64,000 nt of DNA from an uncultured Clostridia bacterium (GTDB taxonomy: Bacteria; Bacillota; Clostridia; Christensenellales; UBA1750), in contig CANQPP010000003.1 in assembly GCA_947625765.1 (NCBI GenBank), forward strand, positions 29,138-93,137, in the 5' to 3' direction. Of the stretch, positions 2,942-25,737 are shown in pieces. Position numbers and translations under genes: made by a program. The first letter of the stretch is position 1, and every line of letters starts with the position of its first letter. The notes beneath the pieces are model-generated. The model did not search any database. It saw nothing but the letters and a program-made list of their open reading frames with translations, and had not been told where the DNA came from.

Positions 2942-4441
2942 ATGCCCCTTTGCGTGTTCGACGACAGCAACGCCATGTTCGGCTCCACGCCGGTGGACAA
3001 CCTGTTCTTAGAGGAGTTCATGCCCCTGGCGCCGGGGGACTGCGTCAAGGTGTACCTCTACGGGCTCAAGCTCTGCCAGAGCGCCGGCCGGGAGATGACG
3101 CTCTCCGCCGTGGCCCGGGCGCTGGCGCTGGAGGAGGAGCAGGTGCTCAAGGCCTTCGGCTACTGGGAGCGCAAGGGGCTGCTGCGCCGCCTGTCGGACA
3201 GGCCGCCTTCCTATGCCTACGTGAACCTGCAGAGGGCCGTGATGGAGGGGAAGCTGGGCGGCCGCGACCAGGCGCTGCCCTACCAGGAGTTCAACGGCGC
3301 CCTGCAGGACCTCTTCGGCGACCGGCTGCTGCACGCCGAGGAATACCAGCGGCTCTACGCCATCGTGGAGGATCTGGGCATCCCCCAGGACGTGCTGCTG
3401 CTGCTGGTGGACTACATGATCCGTTCTTCCCCCCGCAAGCGGAACGTGACACTCAAGCAGATCGAGCGCGAGGCCCAGTTCTGGGTGAGCAAGGGCTACA
3501 CCACCCGCGAGTCGGCCCAGGACTACATCCACTCCAAGGAAGCGGTCTACGAGGGCGCGCGGCAGGTGCTGCGCCAGATGGGCCAGCGCCGCGCCCCTTC
3601 TTTGGACGAGGAAGCCCTCTACCAGCGCTGGACGGAGGAGATGGGCTTCTCCCTGGAGGCGATCCTGCTGGCCTGCAAGGAGACCACCAAGATCAGCGCC
3701 CCCAACTTCGCCTACGTGGACTCGGTGCTCACCAGCCGCTATAAGCGCGGCGCGATCCGGCCCGACCAGGCCGCGGAGGCCGAGAGGCAGCGGGCCGAAC
3801 GGGTGCAGGGCCTGCGGCAGGTGCTGGAGAGCTTAGGCCTGCCCGCCTCCGCCGCAACACAGGACAACCAGAAGCTCTATTCCTCCTGGCTGCAGATGGG
3901 CTTTGACCAGGAGGCGCTGGTGTTCATCGCCCGCTACATGCTGCGCCGGGGGGACAGGCACGACCTGGACGCCTTCTCGGCCATGCTGGAGCGCTTCCGC
4001 TCCAAGGGGCTTTTCAAGGGAGAAGAGCTCCAAGAGAAGCTGCAGGCGCAGGGAAGGAGCGAAAGAGAGCTGGACGCCCTGTTCCACGCCGCGGACATCC
4101 GCAGGCGGCCCACGGACGCGGACATCCAGCAGCTGGAAAGCTGGAAGAAGCAAGGCGCGAGCATGGAGCTCATGCTGCTGGCCGCGGAATACTCCCGCCA
4201 CGCGGAGAACCCCTTCGCCATGATGCAGAAGATCTTAAGCGGCTGGCTGGAGGCGAGCCTGCGCGACGTGGAGAGCGCGCGCAGGGACCACGAGCAGCGC
4301 AGGCAGGCGGCAAAGCCCGCAGCGGGCGGGACGAAGGCCAATACGTGGAACAATTATCCCCAGCATAGCTACACCAAGGAAGAATACGAAGCGATGTACG
4401 ACGATCTGGACGAGCTGTTGGGGGAGGAGCCGAAGACATGA
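2942..4441 (+). CDS. DnaD/DnaB-like replication initiation protein
   Basis: VDNLFLEEFMPLAPGDCVKVYLY N-terminus, repeated DnaD-like segments (NFAYVDSVL, KILSGW); coupled to the downstream ATPase. Confidence 0.85.
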   Translation: MPLCVFDDSNAMFGSTPVDNLFLEEFMPLAPGDCVKVYLYGLKLCQSAGREMTLSAVARALALEEEQVLKAFGYWERKGLLRRLSDRPPSYAYVNLQRAVMEGKLGGRDQALPYQEFNGALQDLFGDRLLHAEEYQRLYAIVEDLGIPQDVLLLLVDYMIRSSPRKRNVTLKQIEREAQFWVSKGYTTRESAQDYIHSKEAVYEGARQVLRQMGQRRAPSLDEEALYQRWTEEMGFSLEAILLACKETTKISAPNFAYVDSVLTSRYKRGAIRPDQAAEAERQRAERVQGLRQVLESLGLPASAATQDNQKLYSSWLQMGFDQEALVFIARYMLRRGDRHDLDAFSAMLERFRSKGLFKGEELQEKLQAQGRSERELDALFHAADIRRRPTDADIQQLESWKKQGASMELMLLAAEYSRHAENPFAMMQKILSGWLEASLRDVESARRDHEQRRQAAKPAAGGTKANTWNNYPQHSYTKEEYEAMYDDLDELLGEEPKT

Positions 4442-5418
4442 TCCTTTGGGACAAAAAACAGATATTGCGCGATATATTGGAAGAAAAGAAGGCGAGCAAG
4501 CAGCGGGCGGAGGCCGAGGCGCTGGCGCGGCGGGACGAGATCGCGCAGCGCGCGCCCATCTACGCCCGGCTGGACCAGGAGCTGGCCCGCATCCGGGCGC
4601 ATCTGGCCCAGGACGCGCTCAGCCACCCCGGCGAGCAGGAGCGCATCAACGAGGAGGGGCGGCGGCAGGTGCTGGCCCTGCGGGACCGCGCCCGCGAGGA
4701 GTTAAAGAGCGCAGGCTTTTCCCCGGAGGACCTAAAGCCCCATTATGACTGCCCCCTCTGCCAGGACACGGGCTTCGTGGGCCCCGCGCCGCAGCGGCGC
4801 TGTACGTGCGTGGAGCGGGAGCTGCAGAGGCGGCTCTACGCCCTGGGCGGCGGGAGCGGGCAGAGCTTCCAGACGTTCGACCTGTCCCGCTTCCCGGACG
4901 AGCCGGGTCCGGACGGCGGTCTCTCCCAGCGCAAGCGCATGGAGAAGATGCGGGAGCTGGCCCTGCGCTACGTGGACGCCTTCCCGAACTATCCCAAGCG
5001 GGACATACTGCTCAGCGGCACGACGGGGCAGGGCAAGACGTTCCTGCTCAACTGCATCTCTCTGGCCGTGCTGGAGAGGGGCTTTACGGTGCTGCGGATC
5101 TCTGCCTTCGATATGTTCGAGCTGATGCGCCAGTACCACAGGGACGGAGAGATAAGCGGCATGGAGACCATGCTGAACGCCCAGCTGCTGGCCATCGACG
5201 ACCTGGGCTCCGAGCCCATGATGCAGAACATCACGAAGGAGTACCTGTTCACCCTGCTTACCGAGCGCAAGGAGAAGCGGCTGAACACGCTGATCGCCAC
5301 CAATTTGGATACGGCGGCGCTGATGGAGCGGTACAGCGACAGGATCTTCTCCCGCTTGACGGACAGGGACAGTACGATGCTCCTGACCTTTCAGGGAAAG
5401 GACCTGCGCAGGCTCTGA
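4438..5418 (+). CDS. DnaC/DnaI-like helicase loader ATPase
   Basis: CPLCQDTG...C-x-C zinc motif, Walker A GTTGQGKT, Walker B LAIDDLG, IATNL, RIFSRL, GKDLR. Confidence 0.9.
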   Translation: MILWDKKQILRDILEEKKASKQRAEAEALARRDEIAQRAPIYARLDQELARIRAHLAQDALSHPGEQERINEEGRRQVLALRDRAREELKSAGFSPEDLKPHYDCPLCQDTGFVGPAPQRRCTCVERELQRRLYALGGGSGQSFQTFDLSRFPDEPGPDGGLSQRKRMEKMRELALRYVDAFPNYPKRDILLSGTTGQGKTFLLNCISLAVLERGFTVLRISAFDMFELMRQYHRDGEISGMETMLNAQLLAIDDLGSEPMMQNITKEYLFTLLTERKEKRLNTLIATNLDTAALMERYSDRIFSRLTDRDSTMLLTFQGKDLRRL

Positions 5419-5431
5419 CGAACGCACAGCC

Positions 5432-5471
5432 AAAAGGACGATGCGGTTTGACCGCACCGTCCTTTTCTTTT
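5432..5471. terminator. Bidirectional terminator between the loader ATPase and sigK
   Basis: AAAAGGACGATGCGGT / ACCGCACCGTCCTTTT hairpin with A and T tails. Confidence 0.75.
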
Positions 5472-6164
5472 TCAGCTGCCTTTTCCGAAGCAGCTGCGCA
5501 GCTTCTCCACCGCGCGCTTCTCGATCCTCGAGACGTAGGAGCGGGAGATGCCCAGCCGCTTGGCCACCTCCCGCTGGGGCAGGGGCGGAAGGCCAGAGAG
5601 GCCGTATCTAAGCTCCACCACCAGCCGCTCCTTTTCGGAGAGCTGCCCCCGCACGATCTCCTTGACCCGGCGCAGGCTCACCCGCTGCTCCACCTCCGCC
5701 TCCACGAGCTCCGGCTCGGTGCCCAAAATGTCGGTGAGCGAGATCTCGTTCCCCTCCTTGTCCACGCCCACGGGCTCGCTTAAGGACACCTCGCCCCGGA
5801 ACTTCTTGCGAGAGCGGATGGCCATGCGGATCTCGTTCTCTACGCAGCGGGCCGCGTAGGTGGCCAGCGCCACGCCCACCCCCCGCTTGTAGGTGTTCAC
5901 CGCCTTGATGAGGCCGATGGCGCCGATGGAGATGAGGTCGTCCTGGTCGATGCCGCAGCCCTGGTACTTCTTGGCCACGTGGGCCACCAGGCGCAGGTTG
6001 TGCTCCACCAGCTCCGTGCGGGCCGCCTCGGACCCCTCCGCCAGCTCCCGCAGGGCGCGCTCCTCCTCCGCGGGGCTCAGCGGCGTGGGAAAGGATTCCC
6101 GGCCGGACACGTAGGACAGCAGGAACATGAGCTCCCCAAGGCCGGACAACAGCCACTCCAGCAT
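5472..6164 (-). CDS. sigK: Sporulation sigma factor (pro-SigK), uninterrupted
   Basis: Hydrophobic pro-sequence then SFPTPLS, HNLRLVAHVAKKY, DLISIGAIGLIKAV, DKEGNEISL, QREVAKRLGISRSYVSRIEK; ATG at 6164. Confidence 0.9.
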   Translation of the reverse strand: MLEWLLSGLGELMFLLSYVSGRESFPTPLSPAEEERALRELAEGSEAARTELVEHNLRLVAHVAKKYQGCGIDQDDLISIGAIGLIKAVNTYKRGVGVALATYAARCVENEIRMAIRSRKKFRGEVSLSEPVGVDKEGNEISLTDILGTEPELVEAEVEQRVSLRRVKEIVRGQLSEKERLVVELRYGLSGLPPLPQREVAKRLGISRSYVSRIEKRAVEKLRSCFGKGS

Positions 6165-6363: not shown

Positions 6364-7008
6364 TTATTCCTGCAGGCTCCCGTTTGGGGAGACCACGACC
6401 ACCCGACAGGGGATGTCCCGGCCGCTGAACTCGACGGCCCTCTTAACGGCGCTCGCCAGGCCCCCGCAGCAGGGCACCGTCATGCGCAGGACGGTCACGT
6501 CCCGCACGCGGTTCATGAGCAGGATCTGCCCCAGCTTTTCGGCGTAGTCCACGGGATCCAGCTTCGGGCAGCCGATGAGCGTGACGCGGCCCTTTAAGAA
6601 GCGCTCGTGGGCGCAGCCGCAGGCAAAGGCGGTGCAGTCCGCGGCCACCAGCAGGCTCGCGTCCTCGTAATAGGGCGCTTGCAGCGGCGCTAAGCGCAGC
6701 TGCACCGGCCAGTTGGTGAGGCGGCTCGCCTGCTCGGACGGCGCTTCTTCCCCATCCGCCGGGCGGCTCACGCCCTCCTTATGGGCCCGCACGGCCCCCT
6801 CGTTGTAGGGCGCGGCCTCGCGCTCCTCAAAGGAGATGGCGTCCGCCGGGCAGGCGGGCAGGCAGTCGCCCAGGCCGTCGCAGTAGTCCTCGCGCATAAG
6901 ATGCGCCTTGCCGTTCACCATGGCGATGGCGCCCTCGTGGCAGGCCCGGGCGCAGGCGCCGCAGCCGTTGCACTTTTCCTCGTCGATCCGAACGATCCTG
7001 CGCAGCAT
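6364..7008 (-). CDS. 4Fe-4S dicluster ferredoxin-domain protein
   Basis: CNGCGACARAC and CDGLGDCLPACP, plus NWPVQL, GCPKLD, VPCCGG. Confidence 0.9.
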   Translation of the reverse strand: MLRRIVRIDEEKCNGCGACARACHEGAIAMVNGKAHLMREDYCDGLGDCLPACPADAISFEEREAAPYNEGAVRAHKEGVSRPADGEEAPSEQASRLTNWPVQLRLAPLQAPYYEDASLLVAADCTAFACGCAHERFLKGRVTLIGCPKLDPVDYAEKLGQILLMNRVRDVTVLRMTVPCCGGLASAVKRAVEFSGRDIPCRVVVVSPNGSLQE

Positions 7009-7036
7009 GGCGCGTCCCTCCCTCGTGTCGTTTATC

Positions 7037-10165
<3,129 letters not shown>

Positions 10166-10336
10166 CTAAACGCGCGCGGCGAATCAATGAAAACAGCAAA
10201 TCTTTTTTGAAAGAAAATGCGCCTGCCCGGGAAAACGGCCGGGCTAGGCGCATTCGGACCAAAATTTTTGTGCATACGGGCCTTTACGGCACGAGGCTCC
10301 AGATTCAGGCGCTCAAAAACGGCTTGATAAAGAACA

Positions 10337-14326: not shown

Positions 14327-14522
14327 ACCTGCATCCTCCTTGGCGGTCGAATCGGAATACGTTTTGTAAAAGGAAGGCGGCATCTTTTTGCCGACCGTGG
14401 GCAGAAGAAAAGCGCCCGTTTCCTGCCCGAAAAACGGAGGGGCCAAGGCCGGAACGCTGTGCTTGCTGCCTGCGGACGGCGTCTCCACTTAAAAATACGG
14501 GGAAAAGCCGCGCGTTTTCCTT

Positions 14523-14686
14523 TCCAACAGCGCTCCGCCCGAAGGGACCTTCCGGGCGACAGTCGCACGGCCCTGTGCCGTGCGCCCAGGCGCGGGGCCT
14601 CTTAAGTTGCCCTTTTGAAGCGCCTTCGGCGGGCAGGCCCTTCTCCGTTTTTGTTTCGGATACCGCGATGCCCGCGCCTCTGTCAT
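14523..14686 (-). ncRNA. Lysine riboswitch (L-box)
   Basis: Minus strand reads ACAGAGGCGC...GAAGGG...GCCGAAG...CTGGG...GACTGTC...GGAGCGCTGT, the L-box landmarks, directly upstream of dapA. Confidence 0.88.
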
Positions 14687-14697
14687 AAGGTACCTTG

Positions 14698-17697: not shown

Positions 17698-19072
17698 AAC
17701 GCAGCGAGCAAGCGGGTAGGCGTTTGAAAAACGCCCCGCAAGCGAGCAGGATTCGCGACGAACGCCCCACTTTCCCTCATATCCGCCTTTTCCCAAAAAT
17801 ACCAACCTTTTGACAAAATCCGACATAACACAACCACGTAGCGAGCGAGCTGGCGTTTGCAAAAACGCCCCGCAAGCGAGCGGGATATACCGCGTCGCCT
17901 CTCTTTCCCCTCCTGTTCGTTCCCATTCTCTCAAGAACCGCGCTAACATCATGCCAAACCCCCGAGCCAACGCAGCGAGTGAGCGGCTGGCGTTTGCAAA
18001 ACGCCCCGCAAGCGAGTGGGATTCACAACAGCCGCTCCGTTTTTCCCCAAAAATGCCATATTTTCGACATATTCCGATATTGTGCAACCGCGTAGTGAGC
18101 TATTGGCGTGTTGAAACACGCCACAAGCGAACGGAACTTGCGCTGATCATTCCCCTTTTCCCTCCTGCCCCTTCCCGCCCCACAAAGAACCGCGCCGAAC
18201 TTCTACCAAACCTCAACGCCAACGCAGCGAGCAAGCGGGTAGGCGTTTGAAAAACGCCCCGCAAGCGAGCGGGATTCATGGCTAACCTCCGCTTTCCCTC
18301 ATATCCGACTTCCCCAAAAATGCCGAACTTTTGACAAAATCCGACATTGCGCAGTCACGTAGTGAGCGAGTGGTGCGTTTATAAACGCGCCACAAGCGAA
18401 TGGGATTTACAGCGTCCCTTTTTTCTCCTACCCGTTCCCCTCCTCCCAAGAACCGCGCCAAGACTCTACTCCCCCTCCTGCAACGCAGTGAGCAAGCGGG
18501 CAGGCGTTTTGAAAAAACGCCCCGCAAGCGAGCGGGATTTCAGATGAAAGCCCCCGTTTTCCCCATATCCGTCTTTTTCCAAAAACGCCGAGTTTTCGAC
18601 ATAATCCGATATTGCGCAACCGCGCAGTGAGCGAGTGGCGTGTTTCCAAACGCGCCACAAGTGAACGGGGCTTACGACGAATGCCTCGCTTTCCCTCATA
18701 TCTGTCCTTCCCTAAAAACACCAATCTTTTGACAAAATCCGACATCGCGCAGCCGTGTAGTGAGCGGGTAGGCGTTTGAAAAACGCCCCGCAAGCGAGCG
18801 GGATTCACGACGCCCCCCACTTTCCCTCATATCCGTCTTTCCCCAAAAACACCGGCCTTTTGACAAAATCCGACATTGCGCAGCCGCGTAGTGAGCGAGT
18901 GGCGCGTTTACAAACGCGCCACAAGCGAACGGAACTTACAGCGGCGCCTCTCTTTTTCTTCCTGCCTGTTCCCATTCTCCCACGAACTGCGCTGAGATCA
19001 TGCCGAACCTCCGCACCAACGCAGCGAGCAAGCGGGCAGGCGTTTGAAAAACGCCCCGCAAGCGAGCGGGAC
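17698..19072. repeat. Non-coding tandem hairpin array, 11 cores at ~130-bp period with two linker types (REP/BIME-like)
   Basis: GGCGTTT-loop-AAACGCC type hairpins at 17719, 17852, 17989, 18105, 18242, 18372, 18503, 18637, 18771, 18901 and 19039, each followed by a CAAGCGA-like tail. Confidence 0.92.
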
Positions 19073-19490: not shown

Positions 19491-19567
19491 TGGCGTGCCT
19501 TGAGGGATTCGAACCCCCGGCCTTTTGGTCCGTAGCCAAACGCTCTATCCAGCTGAGCTAAAGGCAC
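19491..19567 (-). tRNA. tRNA-Arg(ACG)
   Basis: GTGCCTT acceptor, TAGCTCAGCTGGATAGAGC D-arm, TTTGG-CT-ACG-GA-CCAAA anticodon arm, GGTTCGAATCC, encoded CCA. Confidence 0.97.
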
Positions 19568-19663: not shown

Positions 19664-21981
19664 TTACAGGAGCAGCGACGTTTCCGGCAGGCCTTCCGTG
19701 CGGACGGTCAGGAGCGGGTGGCTCGACTCGCGGCGCAGCACGGCCAGGGCGCGACCCCGCCAGAGCGCGCAGTCGGCGGCGGCGTAGCTGTCCGTTGTGC
19801 AGGGGTCCGCGGAGCCCAGTCCCAGCAGGCGGCAGCCCTGCGTGGAGACGAACACGCGCCTTTCTCCGGGACAGAGCACGCCCTTCTCGTCGCGCAGCTC
19901 GATGTGCACATAGCGCAGCTTGGTGCCGGGCATGTTCTTGTCCTCCGCCCGCAGGACAAGGCGCGCGGGCGTGCCCGCGGTCCGAAGTGTGCAGCGGCCC
20001 AGTTCCCTGCCCTGTTCGTCCAGGGAGACCGCCTCCAGGACGCCGGGGGCATAGCTGACCGTAAAGGCGGCGCGGTGCTCCCGCACAGGCTGCTCGTCCA
20101 GCGTTTCTCCGTTTAAGACAAGGCGCACGACGCCCTCCCTTGCGTACACGGTCACAGCGGCGGGCTTTCCCTCGAAGCCGGGATAGTTCCAGCACTCCAG
20201 CAGATCCGGCCAGCCCCAGCGGGTCGTATACTCCTTCTGGCCGAAGCGGGACGGGTGCTGCACGCCCAGGAAGGGCCGGGTGCGGTCCGTCCAGAGGAAG
20301 TCGCGGTAATGGGACTGGGGCGCTTGCGGCCGGTCAGGTCCAGGTCGCCGCAGTAGGCCAGCCGCCAGGGATAGCCGCAGGGGCTCTCCTCGCTGCCGTA
20401 CCAGCTGCGGCCGATGCCCGCCTCGCCGATGTAGTCCCAAGCGGTCCAGACGAAGTCGCCGATCAGGTAGGGATGTTTCTCGACCGCGCGCCAGTTCTCC
20501 GCGGCCTCCATGGGGAAGGACTCAGTGCCCACGAACACGCGGGACGGGAACAGGCCGTGGTCCTTCTCGTAGCGGTCCAGCAGGTAGTTGTAGCCGCAGA
20601 CGTCCAGCGGGGCCAGGTAGTCCTCGGACTTCATCGCCCAGTAGTCCTTGCCCTCGCCCTCCTCCAGCGTGGACATGGTGTTGAGCGCCATCTCCTGCAG
20701 CTCGGTCTCCTCGAAGAAGCCGCAGATGGCGTTGGTCACGGGGCGGGTCCTGTCCAGCGAGCGGACCTTCTCCGCCAGCCGGGCAGACCACGCGGCCCCG
20801 TCGGACATGCCACTGCGCTCCTGCACCTCGTTGCCCGTGGACCAGAGGATCACGCAGGCGTGGCGGCGGTCGCGGCGGACCATGGCCTCCAGCTGCTGCT
20901 CCCAGGTCTCCTCGAAGTAGAGGTGCTCGTCCGCGGCGCGCTTGCCCTCGCGCCAGGCGTCGAAGGCCTCGTCCACCACGTACAGCCCCAGGGCGTCGCA
21001 GGCGCGCAGGAAGCTGGCCGAGTGCGGGTCGTGGGCGCAGCGCACGGCGTTGAAGCCGTTCTCCTTCATCAGCCGGGCCTTGCGGTATTCTGCGCCGCGA
21101 TGGCTGGCCGTGCCCAGAAGGCCATTGTCGTGGTGGATGCAGCCGCCCTTGAGCTTGACCGGCTGCCCGTTGATGAGCAGGCCCTGCTCGGCGTTCACGG
21201 CCACGGTGCGCACGCCGCAGGGGACCTCCTCGGTATCCAGGACCTCGCCCTTCGGCCCCAAAACCTCGGCGCGCAGGCGGTAGAGGTGCGGGTCTTCCGC
21301 GCTCCAGAGGCGGCAGGGGGAAAGCTGCGCCTCCGCGCAGGCCTGACCGTCTTGGGCTTCGGCTTCCATATCCAGCAGCGTCTCGTCCCCGTCTATCAGA
21401 GAAAAGCGGACGCGGCCGGCCTCGGGAGAGACCTCTGCGTTCAGCCGCAGGGAGGCGCCTTCCTCCGTCAGGGAGATCGTGTCCAGCCAGAGCCCGTCGG
21501 GCAGTATGTAGGCAGGCGCGGCGGCGGAGAGCAGCTCCACGCCCCTGTACACGCCCGCGCCCGGGTACCAGCGGGAGGCGGGCAGGGGCCCTGCGTTCAC
21601 GCGCAGCTGCACGGTGTTCTCGCCCTCGTGCAGCCTTCCCGTGAGCCAGACCACAAAGGGAGAATAGCCGCTCTTGTGCAGCGTCAACAGCTGGTTGTTG
21701 ACCCGCACCTCACACAGGCGGTAAACGCCGTCGAAGTACAGGCAGCAGGGGGACGCCGCGGCCTGCGCATCCACATGGAAGCGCTTCTCGTAATAGCCCA
21801 TGCCGTCGGGATAGAACGCCTCGTTGGTCCCACCGGGCGAGGCCGGGTCGGGCTCCAAGGCGATGCGGAAATCGTGGGGCAGGTCCACGGGGCGGCCCTG
21901 CCCGCGGACGGCGCGGCGGACCCAGTCCTCGTGCCGGGCATATTCAAACAGCCAGTTCGCGTTGAAATCCTGGTGGCGCAT
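19664..21981 (-). pseudogene. GH2 glycoside hydrolase with a one-base frameshift near 20317-20320 (pseudogene or sequencing error)
   Basis: RWYPGAGVYR, KGGCIHHDNG, WSTGNE, GDFVWTAWDYIGE in one frame; after GDLDLTGRKRP the expected QSHYRDFLW continues in another frame. Confidence 0.85.
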
Positions 21982-22243
21982 AAAGAATGACCTCCTTGCA
22001 GTCGAGACCGGGCCGCGCCCGGCGCTACCCGTATGATACCGCAGAACAGGGCGGCCCGTCAATTGAAGGGGAAACAAAAACCCGCCCAGGCATCGGAAAA
22101 ACGCCGGAGCGGGTGGGGGTTCAGGCACGCTTATGCAAGGGAACACCCTTGTACAGAAGCGCATCCTTTGTTCATTGAGTCAATCGACACCAAAACCTTC
22201 TGTTAATGCTTCCAGTTTACCCTTTGGAGATACATGCTCAAAA

Positions 22244-22423
22244 TTAGCCCTCTCTCCAATAGTTGCATCCATTCCTGTCGCTCGGACGGTTATATCCACC
22301 ATATCCGCCATCGCAATAAACTCTGCCATTAGAATCAGTGTTGTTCCAATCTGCGTACCGACAATCACGACAATTCCCATAGAACGTGCCCTCTGGTAGC
22401 CTGATTTCAACCATGCAAGACAT
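22244..22423 (-). CDS. Small Cys-rich protein (~59 aa), CxxCxY...C...CxxW
   Basis: GAGGTG RBS before ATG at 22423; CRDCRY...VYC...GCNYW; last gene of the AT-rich operon. Confidence 0.7.
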   Translation of the reverse strand: MSCMVEIRLPEGTFYGNCRDCRYADWNNTDSNGRVYCDGGYGGYNRPSDRNGCNYWREG

Positions 22424-22438
22424 TATTTTCACCTCTTT

Positions 22439-22864
22439 TCATACGACATTTAGTGTGTCGCTCTTTATTTTTATTGCATCCCCATTCTGCATTGCCAAAT
22501 AAGATACGATCTTTTTCTCAGGCAGCACAACAATAGGGAAATACAATTTACCAATACTCGACGGCATCGCTTGCATAATTGTTGTAATGTAAGCGATGTC
22601 TCCATCCGATAAAGTATCCACCCCCCAAAAGTGCGTATGAAAAATGCCCTGGAATGTGATTCCTTTCTGTTGCCATTTTTCAATAATCCCGTTCAAAAAA
22701 GTAACATTTGGCGTATAAAAACAGCCCTTATGCACAGAACGACTTTTATCAAACACACACTCGCAAATTGTATTGTCAACACTGCCCAAAATTCCCCCAG
22801 TTTCAGGAGGTGCAGAAGGTACAGTATTTAAAATATAATCACGAGTATTTCTCAAAATATTCAT
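22439..22864 (-). CDS. JAB/MPN (JAMM) metalloprotease domain protein
   Basis: ETGGILG plus exact JAMM motif H-x-H-x7-S-x2-D (HTHFWGVDTLSDGD). Confidence 0.88.
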   Translation of the reverse strand: MNILRNTRDYILNTVPSAPPETGGILGSVDNTICECVFDKSRSVHKGCFYTPNVTFLNGIIEKWQQKGITFQGIFHTHFWGVDTLSDGDIAYITTIMQAMPSSIGKLYFPIVVLPEKKIVSYLAMQNGDAIKIKSDTLNVV

Positions 22865-22877
22865 TGCATTGTCCGTC

Positions 22878-23147
22878 TTAATTCTTCCAAAAATTCACAG
22901 CAAAAGTCCAAATTTTCACAATGGCCAAGAAGAAAAGGCGCATAAGCTCTATTACTCCGAGGAAAAACGCTGAAACTATAATTAAGGTATACCGTAGCCA
23001 GCGCTTTTGAGGTGTTTGCAGTGATATATGGAACTTGTTTTCAAGATAGGCTACGAAGTTTTTTCCCGCTTTGATCCCATATATAAGGAATGAATAGATG
23101 TATGCTGCTATCAATAGAATTAATAGAACTATGTCAAATGTACTCAT
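22878..23147 (-). CDS. Small two-TM membrane protein
   Basis: GAGGT RBS, ATG at 23147; two hydrophobic stretches. Confidence 0.7.
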   Translation of the reverse strand: MSTFDIVLLILLIAAYIYSFLIYGIKAGKNFVAYLENKFHISLQTPQKRWLRYTLIIVSAFFLGVIELMRLFFLAIVKIWTFAVNFWKN

Positions 23148-23197
23148 CGATGTAAACCTCACATTTCTTTTTTTCGTTCAAGCCTGCATTTTATCCG

Positions 23198-23422
23198 TTA
23201 ATAACGCCATTCACCAGAATGATCCATATATTGCTCCCCCGGTTTGCGCCATCCACCGGCTTCGTCAACATACTCGTCATTCGGGCCTCTCCATGCTCCA
23301 GTAATATCGACATAGTCGTCATCTGGAGTCCTCCACCCGCCCGCAGAATCTACATAATCCTCATCAGGCATGCGCCACGCGCCTGAAGCGTCCATGTACT
23401 GTTGCTTTTTCCATCTTGGCAT
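23198..23422 (-). CDS. 74-aa protein of five 14-aa repeats (Y-[MV]-D-x-x-G-x-W-R-x-P)
   Basis: AGGAGG RBS; YMDASGAWRMP / YVDSAGGWRTP / YVDITGAWRGP / YVDEAGGWRKP / YMDHSGEWRY. Confidence 0.85.
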   Translation of the reverse strand: MPRWKKQQYMDASGAWRMPDEDYVDSAGGWRTPDDDYVDITGAWRGPNDEYVDEAGGWRKPGEQYMDHSGEWRY

Positions 23423-23437
23423 TATGCATGTTCCTCC

Positions 23438-23824
23438 TTACTTTGTCTTGTTTTGGTCAACAACTAATTCTGCCAATCGGGAAATCAAGACTTCCATTCC
23501 TCCATCCTTAAAATTGTCACAGATATATCCCATCGTAGAAAACCATGGTCCAAACCTTACATCGTTTCTTTTGCAGACATACGTCCTCCCTGCCTCCCCT
23601 TGAAAACTCTCACAGTAAGTACAAGTATGGCAAGAATCTGGACCAGCTTGAGATCGGAACCCTGCAATCAGCAAGGCCCTATCCCCATCCCGAACAAATT
23701 TTGTACATACATCTGACCCTCTAACTTCACAACGCCGCAGTGTACAAACAAATCTTCTTCTGCCAAAGAATTTTCTTTTTGAAATATAGTACTTACATAA
23801 TCTACACTTTTTCTCAATAGTCAT
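23438..23824 (-). CDS. Protein with two tandem Cys4 motifs
   Basis: AGGAG RBS; CRLCKY...FVC...VCTKF and CHTCTY...YVC...ICDNF. Confidence 0.75.
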   Translation of the reverse strand: MTIEKKCRLCKYYISKRKFFGRRRFVCTLRRCEVRGSDVCTKFVRDGDRALLIAGFRSQAGPDSCHTCTYCESFQGEAGRTYVCKRNDVRFGPWFSTMGYICDNFKDGGMEVLISRLAELVVDQNKTK

Positions 23825-23851
23825 ATCGTCTTCTCCTCTTGCTCGGCTTTC

Positions 23852-24039
23852 TTTGACATATAAGTGTACTTTTTTGTAAGATAACTACGTAGGCTCAATT
23901 CCCTACTAATAAGCAAAAAAATAAGTATAACACTAGAAAAAGTATTGCAATTATCCTCTATCTATGCAATAATATAGAGGTCACAACGTGTATGGCGTTT
24001 GTGTGAGGCTCTTACAAAAAAGTACACTTTTCTGTAAGA
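23852..24039. promoter_or_regulatory. Promoter region flanked by a perfect 20-bp inverted repeat (candidate invertible switch or operator pair)
   Basis: AAGTGTACTTTTTTGTAAGA (23862-23881) is the exact reverse complement of TCTTACAAAAAAGTACACTT (24010-24029). Confidence 0.65.
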
Positions 24040-24085
24040 CTTTCCAAGAAAGCGCCGCATCGCAAAAAATTCCTTTCATAAAGCC

Positions 24086-24131
24086 AAAAGCATGGCCTGT
24101 CCCTCGTAAGTCAGACAGGCCATGCTTTTTT
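24086..24131. terminator. Bidirectional terminator
   Basis: AAAAGCATGGCCTGTC / GACAGGCCATGCTTTT. Confidence 0.8.
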
Positions 24132-24148
24132 GCATGTTTTTGTCAGTT

Positions 24149-25318
24149 TCAGCCCCAGCGCTGCCCGAGGGCCTGCAGGAGGGCCTCCAGCGTGGTATCG
24201 TCGGGCGGACCTCCTATGCAGGTGAGGGAGGCGGCGAATCTTCCCTTGACGGCCACGGCTTCCATGCCGTTTTTGGCCAGATACACTCGATCCAGGCCGG
24301 GAACGGCCGCCGTGCTCCAGCCATCGCCGCCCGCTTGTCCCGCCAGTGCCTTCCCCTGCAGGGCGCGCGCGATGTCCTCGCCGGAGCCAAAGCGCAGGGC
24401 ATAAACGCGCTCAAAGAGGGCGTAGCCCGCGCCGCCGTCGGTGCGCAGGGGCTGATACAGGTCGTACGTCTCGGCGAGCAGGGAGGCGGAGCGCTCGATC
24501 TTCCCCTCCCTGTCCGGCAGGAACACGGGCACGCGCTCGCCCGCAAGGCCCGCTTCCTCCAGCAGGACGTAAGGCCCGTCGGCTTCTTTGGGCAGGGGCG
24601 ACGTCCGGCCCGTACCGACCTGGGCAAGGCAGAGCGCAAGGCTTAAAACACAGAGCAGCAGGAGCGCGCCGGCCGTGATTTTGTGCGCCTTTTGCCCGCG
24701 GCCGCTGCGGTCGATGGGCAGCCCCTTGGACAGCCGACGCCGAAGCAGGGCTAAACTTACGGCGGCGTGGATGGAAAAATACAGGTTCGCCGCCAGGAAG
24801 CAGAGGAAGAACAGCATAAGGCCCGTGGATGTGACGAAGCTCATGCGCCACTCGTCCGCAAAGTTCATGAGGGCGGCCGAAAAGCTGTCCGACGCGGCGG
24901 CGGTGAGCAGCAGGTACAGCGCGACCAGCAGGGGCACCTGCAGGAGCGTCAGCCAGGCGTTCGTCCGCAGGGCGCGCAGCGTTTCCGCCTGCTGGGCCGG
25001 GTCGCTGTACAGCTCCTGCACGGGCGCATCCGCCGGGGCGCGGAACACGTGGATAAGCCCGCGGCCGGTCACGTACTCCCAGCCGCAGTCCTCATAGAGC
25101 GCCACCTGTTCCTCCGGCAGGCCCGTCTCTTCCCCAAGCCCTGCGCGCGGGGCCAGCTCCACGCGGTACAGCGCCTTTACGGGCTCTCCTTTGCGGAAGC
25201 GGCTCAAAAACGCGCCCCGCTTTTCCAGCAGCCAGCCCTTCTCCGCCATGCGGGTGTAAAAACGCTCCGTTTCGCCTATGGCGTGGTCGCCGGGCTGCGG
25301 CAGATAGCACCGCTTCAT
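24149..25318 (-). CDS. DUF2812 family membrane protein
   Basis: MAEKGWLL...YEDCGWEYV N-terminal signature; directly downstream of PadR. Confidence 0.8.
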   Translation of the reverse strand: MKRCYLPQPGDHAIGETERFYTRMAEKGWLLEKRGAFLSRFRKGEPVKALYRVELAPRAGLGEETGLPEEQVALYEDCGWEYVTGRGLIHVFRAPADAPVQELYSDPAQQAETLRALRTNAWLTLLQVPLLVALYLLLTAAASDSFSAALMNFADEWRMSFVTSTGLMLFFLCFLAANLYFSIHAAVSLALLRRRLSKGLPIDRSGRGQKAHKITAGALLLLCVLSLALCLAQVGTGRTSPLPKEADGPYVLLEEAGLAGERVPVFLPDREGKIERSASLLAETYDLYQPLRTDGGAGYALFERVYALRFGSGEDIARALQGKALAGQAGGDGWSTAAVPGLDRVYLAKNGMEAVAVKGRFAASLTCIGGPPDDTTLEALLQALGQRWG

Positions 25319-25626
25319 GCCTCATCTTCCCCCTTTTCCAGCATCGCGCCGTCGCGCACCATCCGCTTTAGGCGCTCATATTCCGCCTGCAGTGCCTCTT
25401 TCCCTTGATCGGTGAGCAGGTAGATCTTGCGCCGCTCGTCCAGCGCCTCCAAGCGGATGAGGCCGTCCTTGCGCAGGCGCGTCAGGATCCCGTACAGCGT
25501 CCCCGGCCCCAGCAGCACCCGCCCGCCGGACAGCTCGCGGATGCGCTGCATCAGCCCGTAGCCGTGCCCGGGCGAAAGCAGGGCCAGGAAGATGTAATAC
25601 ATGGCCTCGCTCATGGGCTGGTCCAT
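25315..25626 (-). CDS. PadR family transcriptional regulator
   Basis: MSEAMYYI, HGYGLMQ, LGPGTLYG, RRKIYLLT. Confidence 0.92.
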   Translation of the reverse strand: MDQPMSEAMYYIFLALLSPGHGYGLMQRIRELSGGRVLLGPGTLYGILTRLRKDGLIRLEALDERRKIYLLTDQGKEALQAEYERLKRMVRDGAMLEKGEDEA

Positions 25627-25737
25627 CGCGCCCGCCTCCTTGCCGTCTAACTATTATGCGATACGATATATCGCGTGACACAATAGTACCACGGCGGCGC
25701 GGGCCCGTCAAGGGCCAAACGCGCCCGCACAAACATC

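Follow-up and report, generated by a model that had tools for sequence, protein, structure and literature searches.

A conserved four-cysteine microprotein adjoins a minimal JAB/JAMM protease in a low-GC islet of a Clostridia chromosome

To our knowledge, bacterial JAB proteins of known function either act alongside E1/E2 enzymes and ubiquitin-like proteins or take part in phage tail assembly. What, then, might such a protease do in a compact gene island that encodes none of these partners? The question is raised by an AT-rich segment in the window, by which we mean the whole 64,000-nt stretch of DNA analysed here, from an uncultured Clostridia bacterium. A sequence-only reading of the segment had described five small, packed and co-oriented ORFs around an orphan JAB protein, and had suggested a horizontally acquired protease module in which the JAB enzyme processes its small neighbours. 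The features discussed below are the following.

About 22170-24085 (boundaries approximate), minus strand: low-GC islet of about 1.9 kb, a five-gene cassette
23825..24085, minus strand: AT-rich leader upstream of O1
23438-23824, minus strand: O1, 128 aa, with two Cys4 units, a Gly-Gly (G108, G109) and a C-terminal tail
23198-23422, minus strand: O2, 74 aa, acidic, with four full 14-aa units and a partial fifth
22878-23162, minus strand: O3, 94 aa (89 aa from the likely start ATG at 23147), with two hydrophobic segments
22439-22864, minus strand: O4 (JAB), 141 aa, a predicted minimal Prok-JAB/JAMM metalloprotease
22244-22432, minus strand: O5, 62 aa (59 aa from the likely start ATG at 22423), with one Cys4 unit

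The GC profile and the ORF calls confirm the AT-rich five-ORF segment. GC content drops from 0.66-0.71 to 0.33-0.49 at about 22170-24100 and is back to 0.70 beyond, so that an islet of 33-47% GC stands in a host chromosome of about 68% GC. Its content is five co-oriented, tightly packed minus-strand ORFs, all of them intact. Shine-Dalgarno-like sequences precede O1, O2, O3 and O5, in agreement with the four originally claimed, and a weak one precedes the JAB gene. Run X2, from a different sample, contains one contig corresponding to 20500-22849 and another corresponding to 23241-25700; since these bridge both junctions, an assembly chimera is ruled out. Inside the island, contig pieces of other strains show 0-1 differing positions, and the X3 and X7 flank pieces show 2-4% differences. 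No contig joining across the island, representing an empty site, was present among the four sequencing runs compared.

The island had no match in 30 relatives, two of the same genus included, and looks horizontally acquired, as had been proposed. The same-genus relatives have high-GC DNA past the GH2 gene, and synteny beyond this gene is not kept in the relatives. ORF inspection and a domain scan revealed no mobility gene within the window islet. Compared with related loci, the window shows saturation at synonymous sites (pS 0.81-0.93), against pN values of 0.10-0.17 for O5, 0.16 for O2 (where pS is 0.81) and 0.31 for JAB. By this measure, the island ORFs are real genes under purifying selection.

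Judged by its conserved motif, O4 is a genuine JAB. The motif, E21 ... H76-x-H78-x7-S86-x2-D89, is intact, as first noted, and none of E21, H76, H78, S86 and D89 varies among the 27 JAB relatives. PF14464 matches 14 of these 27 (best E 7.3e-6), and window O4 itself has no Pfam match at E<=1; RadC (PF04002) is absent from the Pfam matches of O4 and the 27 relatives. A PDB profile match was obtained to JAMM1 (5ld9/5lda, E 2e-4). The top defence-library matches are CBASS JAB models, aligned over nearly their full length; PADLOC JAB model PDLC00890, for instance, matches at E 6.9e-5, with residues 16-134 of O4 aligned to 28-155 of 157. The description of O4 as an orphan also stands. That is, neither the island nor its flanks contain an E1, E2, ubiquitin-like or CD-NTase gene, the genome (94% complete) has no SMODS match, and its single above-cutoff ThiF match lies on contig C23, which is not the contig of the island. 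Adjacency or fusion to tail genes or NlpC/P60 domains was likewise absent from the island and the related loci scanned.

Which neighbours does the JAB gene keep elsewhere? Of the 22 stand-alone JAB lineages, 20 have an O5 homologue beside it; the lineages were counted as clusters, which are not fully independent because the loci are mostly metagenomic and belong to a few lineages of gut Firmicutes. The remaining two clusters (L034 and L088) end at contig edges. In the pairing count, for which JAB clusters were defined at 80% identity, an O5-like gene lies on the same strand at a distance of <=350 nt for 85/94 JAB ORFs and in 20/24 clusters. The four clusters without O5 are the two at contig ends and L008 and L106, which are long JAB fusions of another type. 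The metagenome scan was queried with a 14-sequence subset of the 27-sequence alignment; remote JABs from a genome sample (E 1e-18 to 1e-30) also keep O5. The microprotein gene is downstream of JAB in 17 clusters and upstream in three, and in the loci read the two ORFs overlap or are a few bases apart. Two fragments in which JAB and O5 seem to be fused (P0062 and P0116) were set aside, as the genes are separate in L107, seemingly the same lineage.

The usual further companions of the pair are other Cys-rich proteins and small membrane proteins, with small 2-TM or multi-TM proteins flanking it in lineages A, B, C, D, L067, L083, L086 and L107. JAB homologues thus do adjoin ORFs of this island elsewhere, which removes an objection raised along with the sequence-only reading, namely that the genes might not co-occur outside this genome. 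Recurrence of the complete five-gene order was borne out in one prophage-like lineage only; what the lineages share is JAB and O5, usually with a small membrane protein. From these neighbourhoods we conclude that the conserved unit is JAB plus O5, not the five-gene order. Literature listings and abstracts, together with passages of PMC1779556, contained no account of such a pair.

The constant companion of this JAB lineage belongs to an uncatalogued family of four-cysteine microproteins of about 60 aa, comprising about 124 clusters at 50% identity. Conservation is higher in O5 than in the protease beside it, with 65-86% identity over most lineages against 44-59% for JAB, in line with its lower pN. 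In 81 family members the four cysteines are invariant or nearly so, and O5 presumably binds zinc. A highly conserved core follows a variable N-terminus, and the protein ends 3-6 residues past the last cysteine, leaving no flexible tail; several relatives carry a C-terminal hydrophobic anchor. Neither Pfam, NCBIfam, PHROGs annotation, PADLOC nor the PDB includes the family, the cluster members looked up are all nameless, and the 81-member profile matched no consistent Pfam family and no PDB sequence below E 0.1. The AF2 model of O5 (pLDDT 71.6) is all-beta, with five strands and no helix; in the fold search suggested with the first reading it matched nothing in the PDB with Foldseek (E<=0.001) and none of 48,161 chains with VIA (Z>=2). 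The AF2 model of O1 (pLDDT 33.6) was unusable. The two Cys4 proteins are not detectably related to each other (hhalign probability 0.2), nor does the O5 HMM retrieve O1-like proteins. DUF6472 (PF20076), a protein-atlas lead for O5, was rejected: it matches 0/81 family members, its cysteine spacing differs, and in the four genomes having both it lies on a different contig from JAB.

The remaining genes travel less widely. O1 is lineage-specific, fast-evolving and absent from most lineages that keep JAB and O5. Its eight cysteines are invariant among its paralogues; a word-based search found no further relatives, and Pfam, PADLOC, PHROG and NCBIfam gave no match. O2, built on a repeat unit of the type G-x-W-R-x-P-x-D-x-Y-V-D, is specific to lineage A, with only five related clusters in a word-based search; its identity to the prophage-lineage protein is 73-74%, and it weakly matches phrog_25859 (E 0.001). 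O3 has a homologue in the prophage lineage (tblastn E 1.8e-9), and its PADLOC match, over 23 residues, is at chance level. Small 2-TM proteins of O3-like architecture adjoin the pair in four further lineages, with weak sequence similarity across lineages (E 0.007-0.06). An inverted repeat of 26 nt lies in the leader preceding O1 (arms at 23856-23881 and 24010-24035, with 92% complementarity and a spacing of 128 nt), and promoter-like hexamers occur there on the plus strand only; the prophage lineage does not conserve this leader.

The genomic settings of the pair are those of mobile DNA. In the prophage lineage the cassette lies with a Mu-F-type head-protein gene and an integrase, and other JAB-O5 loci have integrases, a resolvase or a group II intron nearby. 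Six IMG/VR contigs carry the cassette; among 50,697 GenBank phage records there was a single carrier, and among 72,556 plasmids none. A second compact low-GC islet of five genes, L021, lies in a 62% GC background; both it and the window islet are in chromosomes without surrounding phage genes. Occurrence is patchy, with 7 carriers among 400 genomes of the class. Association of the cassette with known defence genes is weak: PADLOC matched two of 59 neighbouring proteins, both generic (a kinase and an SNF2 helicase).

How might these observations be explained? The reading we favour, tentatively and with somewhat less than even confidence, is a membrane-linked proteolytic module that is independent of E1 and E2, is carried as cargo by mobile elements and probably serves in phage or mobile-element conflict. 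Its core would be the minimal JAB/JAMM zinc protease and the roughly 60-aa all-beta Cys4 microprotein O5, the latter acting as an obligate partner of the protease, that is, as a regulatory or substrate-recognition subunit. The pair may act on the inner side of the membrane, with small membrane proteins (O3 in this island) as co-workers and O1 and O2 as possible lineage-specific adaptors or substrates. No E1, E2 or ubiquitin-like partner would be needed. Such a module could provide a proteolytic switch when phages or mobile elements come into conflict with their hosts, as in exclusion or abortive infection. A conflict role seems the most likely one because the genes occur in prophage-like elements, in integrase or resolvase islands and in low-GC islets, with a patchy distribution.

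A more specific version, which we consider rather doubtful, holds that JAB, O5 and a small membrane partner form an undescribed, self-contained immune or exclusion system, in which the microprotein would sense the invader and unleash or restrain the protease at the membrane, with no conjugation of ubiquitin-like proteins. If true, the JAMM fold would serve prokaryotic conflict in a new way, and the microprotein family would be new as well. Even the simpler proposition that the pair is a functional unit would widen the range of JAMM enzymes and give the mobile genes of gut Firmicutes one more candidate conflict module. With a two- or three-gene core of <1 kb, the module is small and therefore easily tested.

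Adjacency of JAB and O5 alone would also be expected of a toxin-antitoxin or a substrate-enzyme pair, and several other readings must be weighed. The first reading, spelled out, would have the JAB enzyme cut its small neighbours after Gly-Gly; a C-terminus would be released or exposed on the Cys4 proteins, much as JAB enzymes treat ubiquitin-like carriers. QbsD, Mec+ and Cap3 are JAB enzymes that cleave at a C-terminal Gly-Gly and so offer a precedent, and O1 has a Gly-Gly after its second Cys4 unit, followed by a tail of roughly 20 aa. This dipeptide is invariant in the window protein and in two prophage paralogue groups only 24-30% identical, three groups of one lineage. It is missing, however, from the O1-like proteins in lineages B and E, most JAB-O5 lineages have no O1 at all, and some O1 paralogues are truncated or split beside intact JAB, O2 and O5. 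The Gly-Gly inside O5 is no constant of the wider family: it is replaced in remote members, and O5 has no flexible tail. The Gly-Gly processing idea is weakly supported, and we regard it as unlikely; the first interpretation as a whole is partly supported. Alternatively, the protease might be a counter-defence factor, a stand-alone deconjugating isopeptidase that strips ubiquitin-like conjugates made by the host (through type II CBASS Cap2 or Bil-type systems), with O5 as a targeting zinc finger. Its resemblance to CBASS JAB models, the carriage on prophage-like contigs and the lack of a cognate E1/E2 in cis would all fit. Yet the window and L021 islets are chromosomal, the GenBank phage and plasmid counts are close to nil, the consistent membrane-protein neighbours are left unexplained, and at the level of listings and abstracts the literature has no report of such a phage enzyme; we consider this reading improbable.

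The tight spacing and variable order of the two genes, and their mobile, patchy locations in tiny islets, also recall an addiction pair in which JAB, O5 or the 2-TM protein is toxic, another component neutralises it and the carrier element is stabilised. The lack of similarity to known toxin or antitoxin families, and the presence of a conserved catalytic protease with extra conserved genes, which exceeds a simple pair, make this quite unlikely. Could the small Cys-rich proteins instead be precursors that the JAB peptidase matures into a secreted or membrane-active peptide? A Pfam-confirmed radical SAM/SPASM gene lies beside the pair in L083 and L086, the latter also with a 52-aa Cys-rich peptide, and a probable one, judged from sequence alone, in L074; in the prophage lineage, genes for a LytTR regulator and a histidine kinase come directly before it. 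Against this, radical SAM genes were Pfam-confirmed in these two loci only, with none in the window, no exporter or leader-type motif was seen, and the conserved folded core and variable N-terminus of O5 are the opposite of what leader and core peptides would show. Peptide maturation is, in our estimate, very unlikely. Finally, the absence of mobility genes from the window islet and the presence of JAB-ThiF fusion types (L008, L106) among remote relatives might suggest that the islet is a functionless leftover, in decay, from a phage or E1-E2-JAB locus. Five intact ORFs under strong purifying selection, a pair kept in about 20 lineages, and the near identity of island pieces across strains where the X3/X7 flanks diverge all argue against decay, which we think extremely unlikely.

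How, then, does the favoured E1/E2-independent module compare with known systems? For a toxin-antitoxin module, only the arrangement of the genes would fit. Set against phage tail assembly proteins of the K type, the island and the related loci scanned lack an NlpC/P60 domain. O4 shares its motif and minimal single-domain size with Prok-JAB/JAMM metalloproteases (PF14464) such as Pyrococcus furiosus JAMM1, whose substrates are the SAMP ubiquitin-like proteins; near O4 there is no beta-grasp protein. Sulfur-carrier JABs (Mec+/CysO, QbsD/QbsE) offer a parallel in layout, a small JAB being encoded beside its small target protein. The CysO/QbsE-type partners are beta-grasp proteins with a Gly-Gly end, in contrast to O5, which is modelled as all-beta, has four cysteines and lacks a Gly-Gly terminus; nor are there sulfur-transfer enzymes near the island.

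Among conjugation systems, the remote relatives L008, a JAB-ThiF fusion beside an AAA_2 ATPase, and L106, a 536-aa JAB-containing protein beside an ATPase-like ORF with a P-loop motif read from its sequence, belong to or resemble the Bil-type Ubl-E1-E2-JAB operons and JAB-ThiF fusions. The window family differs in being stand-alone, with no E1, E2 or Ubl adjacent in the loci examined, and the fusion types in turn lack the O5 that stand-alone JABs keep. The adjacent Ubl, ThiF and E2 genes of 6E-type and Bil-type systems are likewise not present in the island. Screening against PADLOC v2, a check proposed at the outset, matched no known defence system; only the JAB protein gave matches, to CBASS JAB models, and O1, O2 and O5 gave none. 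Type II CBASS has a JAB isopeptidase, Cap3, that is similar in size to O4 and is its top defence-library match. Where that system has a CD-NTase, Cap2 (E1/E2) and an effector, the island has none of these and, instead, a Cys4 microprotein as the partner of its protease.

The island is set off sharply from its surroundings, with a sliding GC profile of 0.33-0.49 at ~22170-24100 versus 0.66-0.71 on either side. It is filled by five minus-strand ORFs separated by gaps of 6 to ~35 nt, bearing out the AT-rich five-ORF island described in the sequence-only reading. The five ORFs are:

23438-23824, minus strand: O1, double-Cys4 protein, 128 aa, with two units of four cysteines
23198-23422, minus strand: O2, repeat protein, 74 aa, built of 14-aa repeats, four complete and one partial
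22878-23162, minus strand: O3, 2-TM protein, 94 aa, with an in-frame ATG at 23147, 9 nt past GTGAGG
22439-22864, minus strand: O4, JAB protein, 141 aa
22244-22432, minus strand: O5, microprotein, 62 aa, with one four-cysteine unit and an in-frame ATG at 22423, 6 nt past AGAGGTG

The island is flanked by a family-2 glycoside hydrolase gene and, at its opposite end, by a DUF2812 gene accompanied by a PadR regulator; a tRNA-Arg gene is found at a distance of 2.6 kb. The DUF2812 gene is terminated by a perfect 16-bp hairpin (24086-24129), after which the AT-rich leader of the island starts. Within this leader is a 26-nt inverted repeat (23856-23881/24010-24035) whose arms are 92% complementary and separated by 128 nt; it might represent an operator pair or mark the two termini of a small insertion, and the prophage lineage described below does not conserve it. 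The hydrolase gene itself (19664-22164, minus strand) falls into two reading frames that overlap (20152-22164 and 19664-20440), and its relatives align unbroken across ~2.3 kb (19671-21955); a frameshift, a pseudogene or a sequencing error is possible. Adjoining the tRNA-Arg (19491-19567) is a tandem array at 18036-18941 (units of ~131 or 264 nt, 3.4-5.3 copies, 65-74% matches), which has no Rfam match at gathering score and sits in a 1.7-kb stretch free of long ORFs, with a GC of ~0.55 and strong negative GC skew. Further away, the minus strand carries a lysine riboswitch at 14520-14690 (Rfam RF00168, 58.8 bits).

Both island junctions are crossed by contigs of metagenome run X2, from another sample (20500-22849 and 23241-25700). 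Among the contig pieces listed, those wholly within the island show 0-1 differences from the window; flank pieces in runs X3 and X7 are ~2-4% different. The samples containing the island are rabbit gut metagenomes from two studies. When a 5.5-kb query was compared with 30 related genomes, its island part was matched in none, and two genomes of the same genus matched the hydrolase gene only, beyond which they carry high-GC DNA. The island is real DNA at its present location, and it is foreign.

Searches of Pfam, NCBIfam and PHROGs were uninformative for all five proteins. Among 5.8 billion proteins, a word-indexed search returned 27 relatives of the JAB, in whose alignment E21, H76, H78, S86 and D89 are invariant (E21 ... 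H76-T-H78, seven residues, S86, two residues, D89), so the claim of an intact JAMM motif holds. PF14464 matches 14 of these relatives, the JAB profile matches solved JAMM1 (E 2e-4), and CBASS JAB models of PADLOC match O4 over nearly its full length (best E 6.9e-5). Because of this motif invariance and these matches, O4 is, as judged from its sequence, a divergent yet bona fide minimal JAMM protease.

Related loci were gathered from scans of viral contigs (7), metagenomes (80) and genomes (1) and from a 400-genome sample of the class (6), and were compared with the five window proteins by tblastn. The whole cassette was found in only one prophage-like lineage (L002-L007, L009-L019, L030-L033), which has two O1 paralogues; identities to the window proteins are 24-30% for O1, 73-74% for O2, 25% for O3, 55-59% for the JAB and 78% for O5. 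There, the cassette is bordered by a LytTR regulator with a histidine kinase and by a Mu-F-type head-protein gene. Downstream of it in L005 (7925-9974), a Mu-F-like head-morphogenesis gene precedes a phage minor-capsid-2/ADP-ribosyltransferase domain fusion, and in L004 a DUF2513 gene and an integrase also follow. The cassette here occupies the cargo end of an integrated element.

In the other lineages, the JAB and O5 alone were recognisable by tblastn. HMM searches of all ORFs of the gathered loci placed an O5-like ORF within 350 nt of the JAB, on the same strand, for 85 of 94 JAB ORFs. After clustering at 80% identity, such a neighbour is seen in 20 of 24 JAB clusters (downstream in 17, upstream in 3), and even remote JABs (E 1e-18 to 1e-30) retain it. 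Two of the four remaining clusters lie at contig ends (L034, where a cut O5 is still visible by tblastn, and L088); the other two are of a different type, namely long JAB-containing fusion proteins beside ATPase genes (L008, L106). Recurrence of the five-gene order is thus confined to one lineage, and it is the JAB-O5 pair that is widespread. JAB matches occur in 7 of the 400 genomes, including one fusion type and the window's own genome. We regard it as firm, on sequence comparison, that a minimal JAB with an intact catalytic motif and a four-cysteine microprotein form a conserved gene pair. Equally firm is that this pair travels on mobile DNA of gut Firmicutes, in most cases together with small membrane proteins and further Cys-rich ones.

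In most lineages, identity to the window protein is 65-86% for O5 and 44-59% for the JAB; in the remotest lineages, O5 retains 40-57%. A profile search of 1.84 billion representatives returned 124 O5 clusters at E<=1e-3, nearly all of 45-90 aa, of which 47 reach E<=1e-10; none of the members checked is named. Among 81 members, one Cys is invariant, and three further Cys and one Pro are nearly so. A C-terminal hydrophobic anchor is present in some members; one member consists of two tandem units, and another runs on into repeats resembling O2. Members have no consistent Pfam match, and the profile matched no PDB sequence. The AF2 model (pLDDT 71.6) has five strands and no structural match.

A two-segment small membrane protein immediately precedes the JAB in lineages A (which includes the window) and B and in L083; in L067 its distance upstream is ~300 nt, in L086 it is greater, and in L107 the protein comes directly after O5. 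Given how weakly the groups resemble one another in sequence (E 0.007-0.06), we consider them a common architecture rather than a proven family. Lineage B (L020-L029) offers a second five-gene islet, with 40-52% GC in a ~62% background, encoding a lipoprotein, a membrane-anchored Cys7 protein, a 2-TM protein, the JAB and O5; in L021 (4700-6700) it is flanked by genes for a ClpC-type ATPase and an XRE-family protein, with no mobility gene. Neighbours in lineage C are a multi-TM protein, TerY_C zinc-binding proteins, a transglutaminase-like protein, a protein kinase, vWA proteins and a metallo-beta-lactamase; those in lineage D are a PP2C phosphatase, kinase-like proteins and TM proteins. L001 has vWA and tubulin-like genes, the latter (PF13809) standing in tandem on either side of the pair (3412-5972 and 6769-10271). 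Each is divided at an identical point into a pair of overlapping ORFs, which could reflect a shared frameshift or recoding. PADLOC models match 2 of 59 neighbouring proteins, both generically.

We infer that O5 may be a partner subunit of the JAB protease, for regulation or substrate recognition, and that the module would act at the membrane and serve in conflicts between mobile elements and their hosts, a joint reading to which we give slightly less than an even chance. Processing of the neighbours at Gly-Gly, a possibility raised by the sequence-only reading, is one alternative; the internal Gly-Gly of the window O5 is not conserved across the 81 members. Peptide maturation is an alternative to be read alongside L083 and L086, where an integrase accompanies a radical SAM or SPASM enzyme (L086 4009-5796; L083 6657-8018). 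L086 additionally encodes a 52-aa Cys-rich peptide of precursor-like appearance, and L074 has a resolvase together with what is probably, from its sequence, a broken radical SAM gene.

The pair might also be toxin and antitoxin, or the island a dead remnant; comparison of the window with two lineages gives pN/pS values of 0.10-0.17/0.92 for O5 and 0.31/0.84 for the JAB. As a further alternative, the JAB could be a counter-defence deconjugase. Of 50,697 GenBank phage records, one carries it, an unannotated fragment of 4 kb that likewise has O5 and a 2-TM gene; of 72,556 plasmids, none does. The window's genome (94% complete) holds one JAB of the O4 family and one above-cutoff ThiF match, on another contig.

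Compared with CBASS, the island JAB resembles the JAB models of that system, whereas SMODS has no match in the window's genome. A full-text literature search found no description of the JAB-O5 pair, the missing ubiquitin-like machinery or the cassette architecture. The JAB fold and chemistry are already known; its constant O5 partner, its lack of ubiquitin-like machinery and the architecture of the cassette are recorded in none of Pfam, NCBIfam, PADLOC and PDB.
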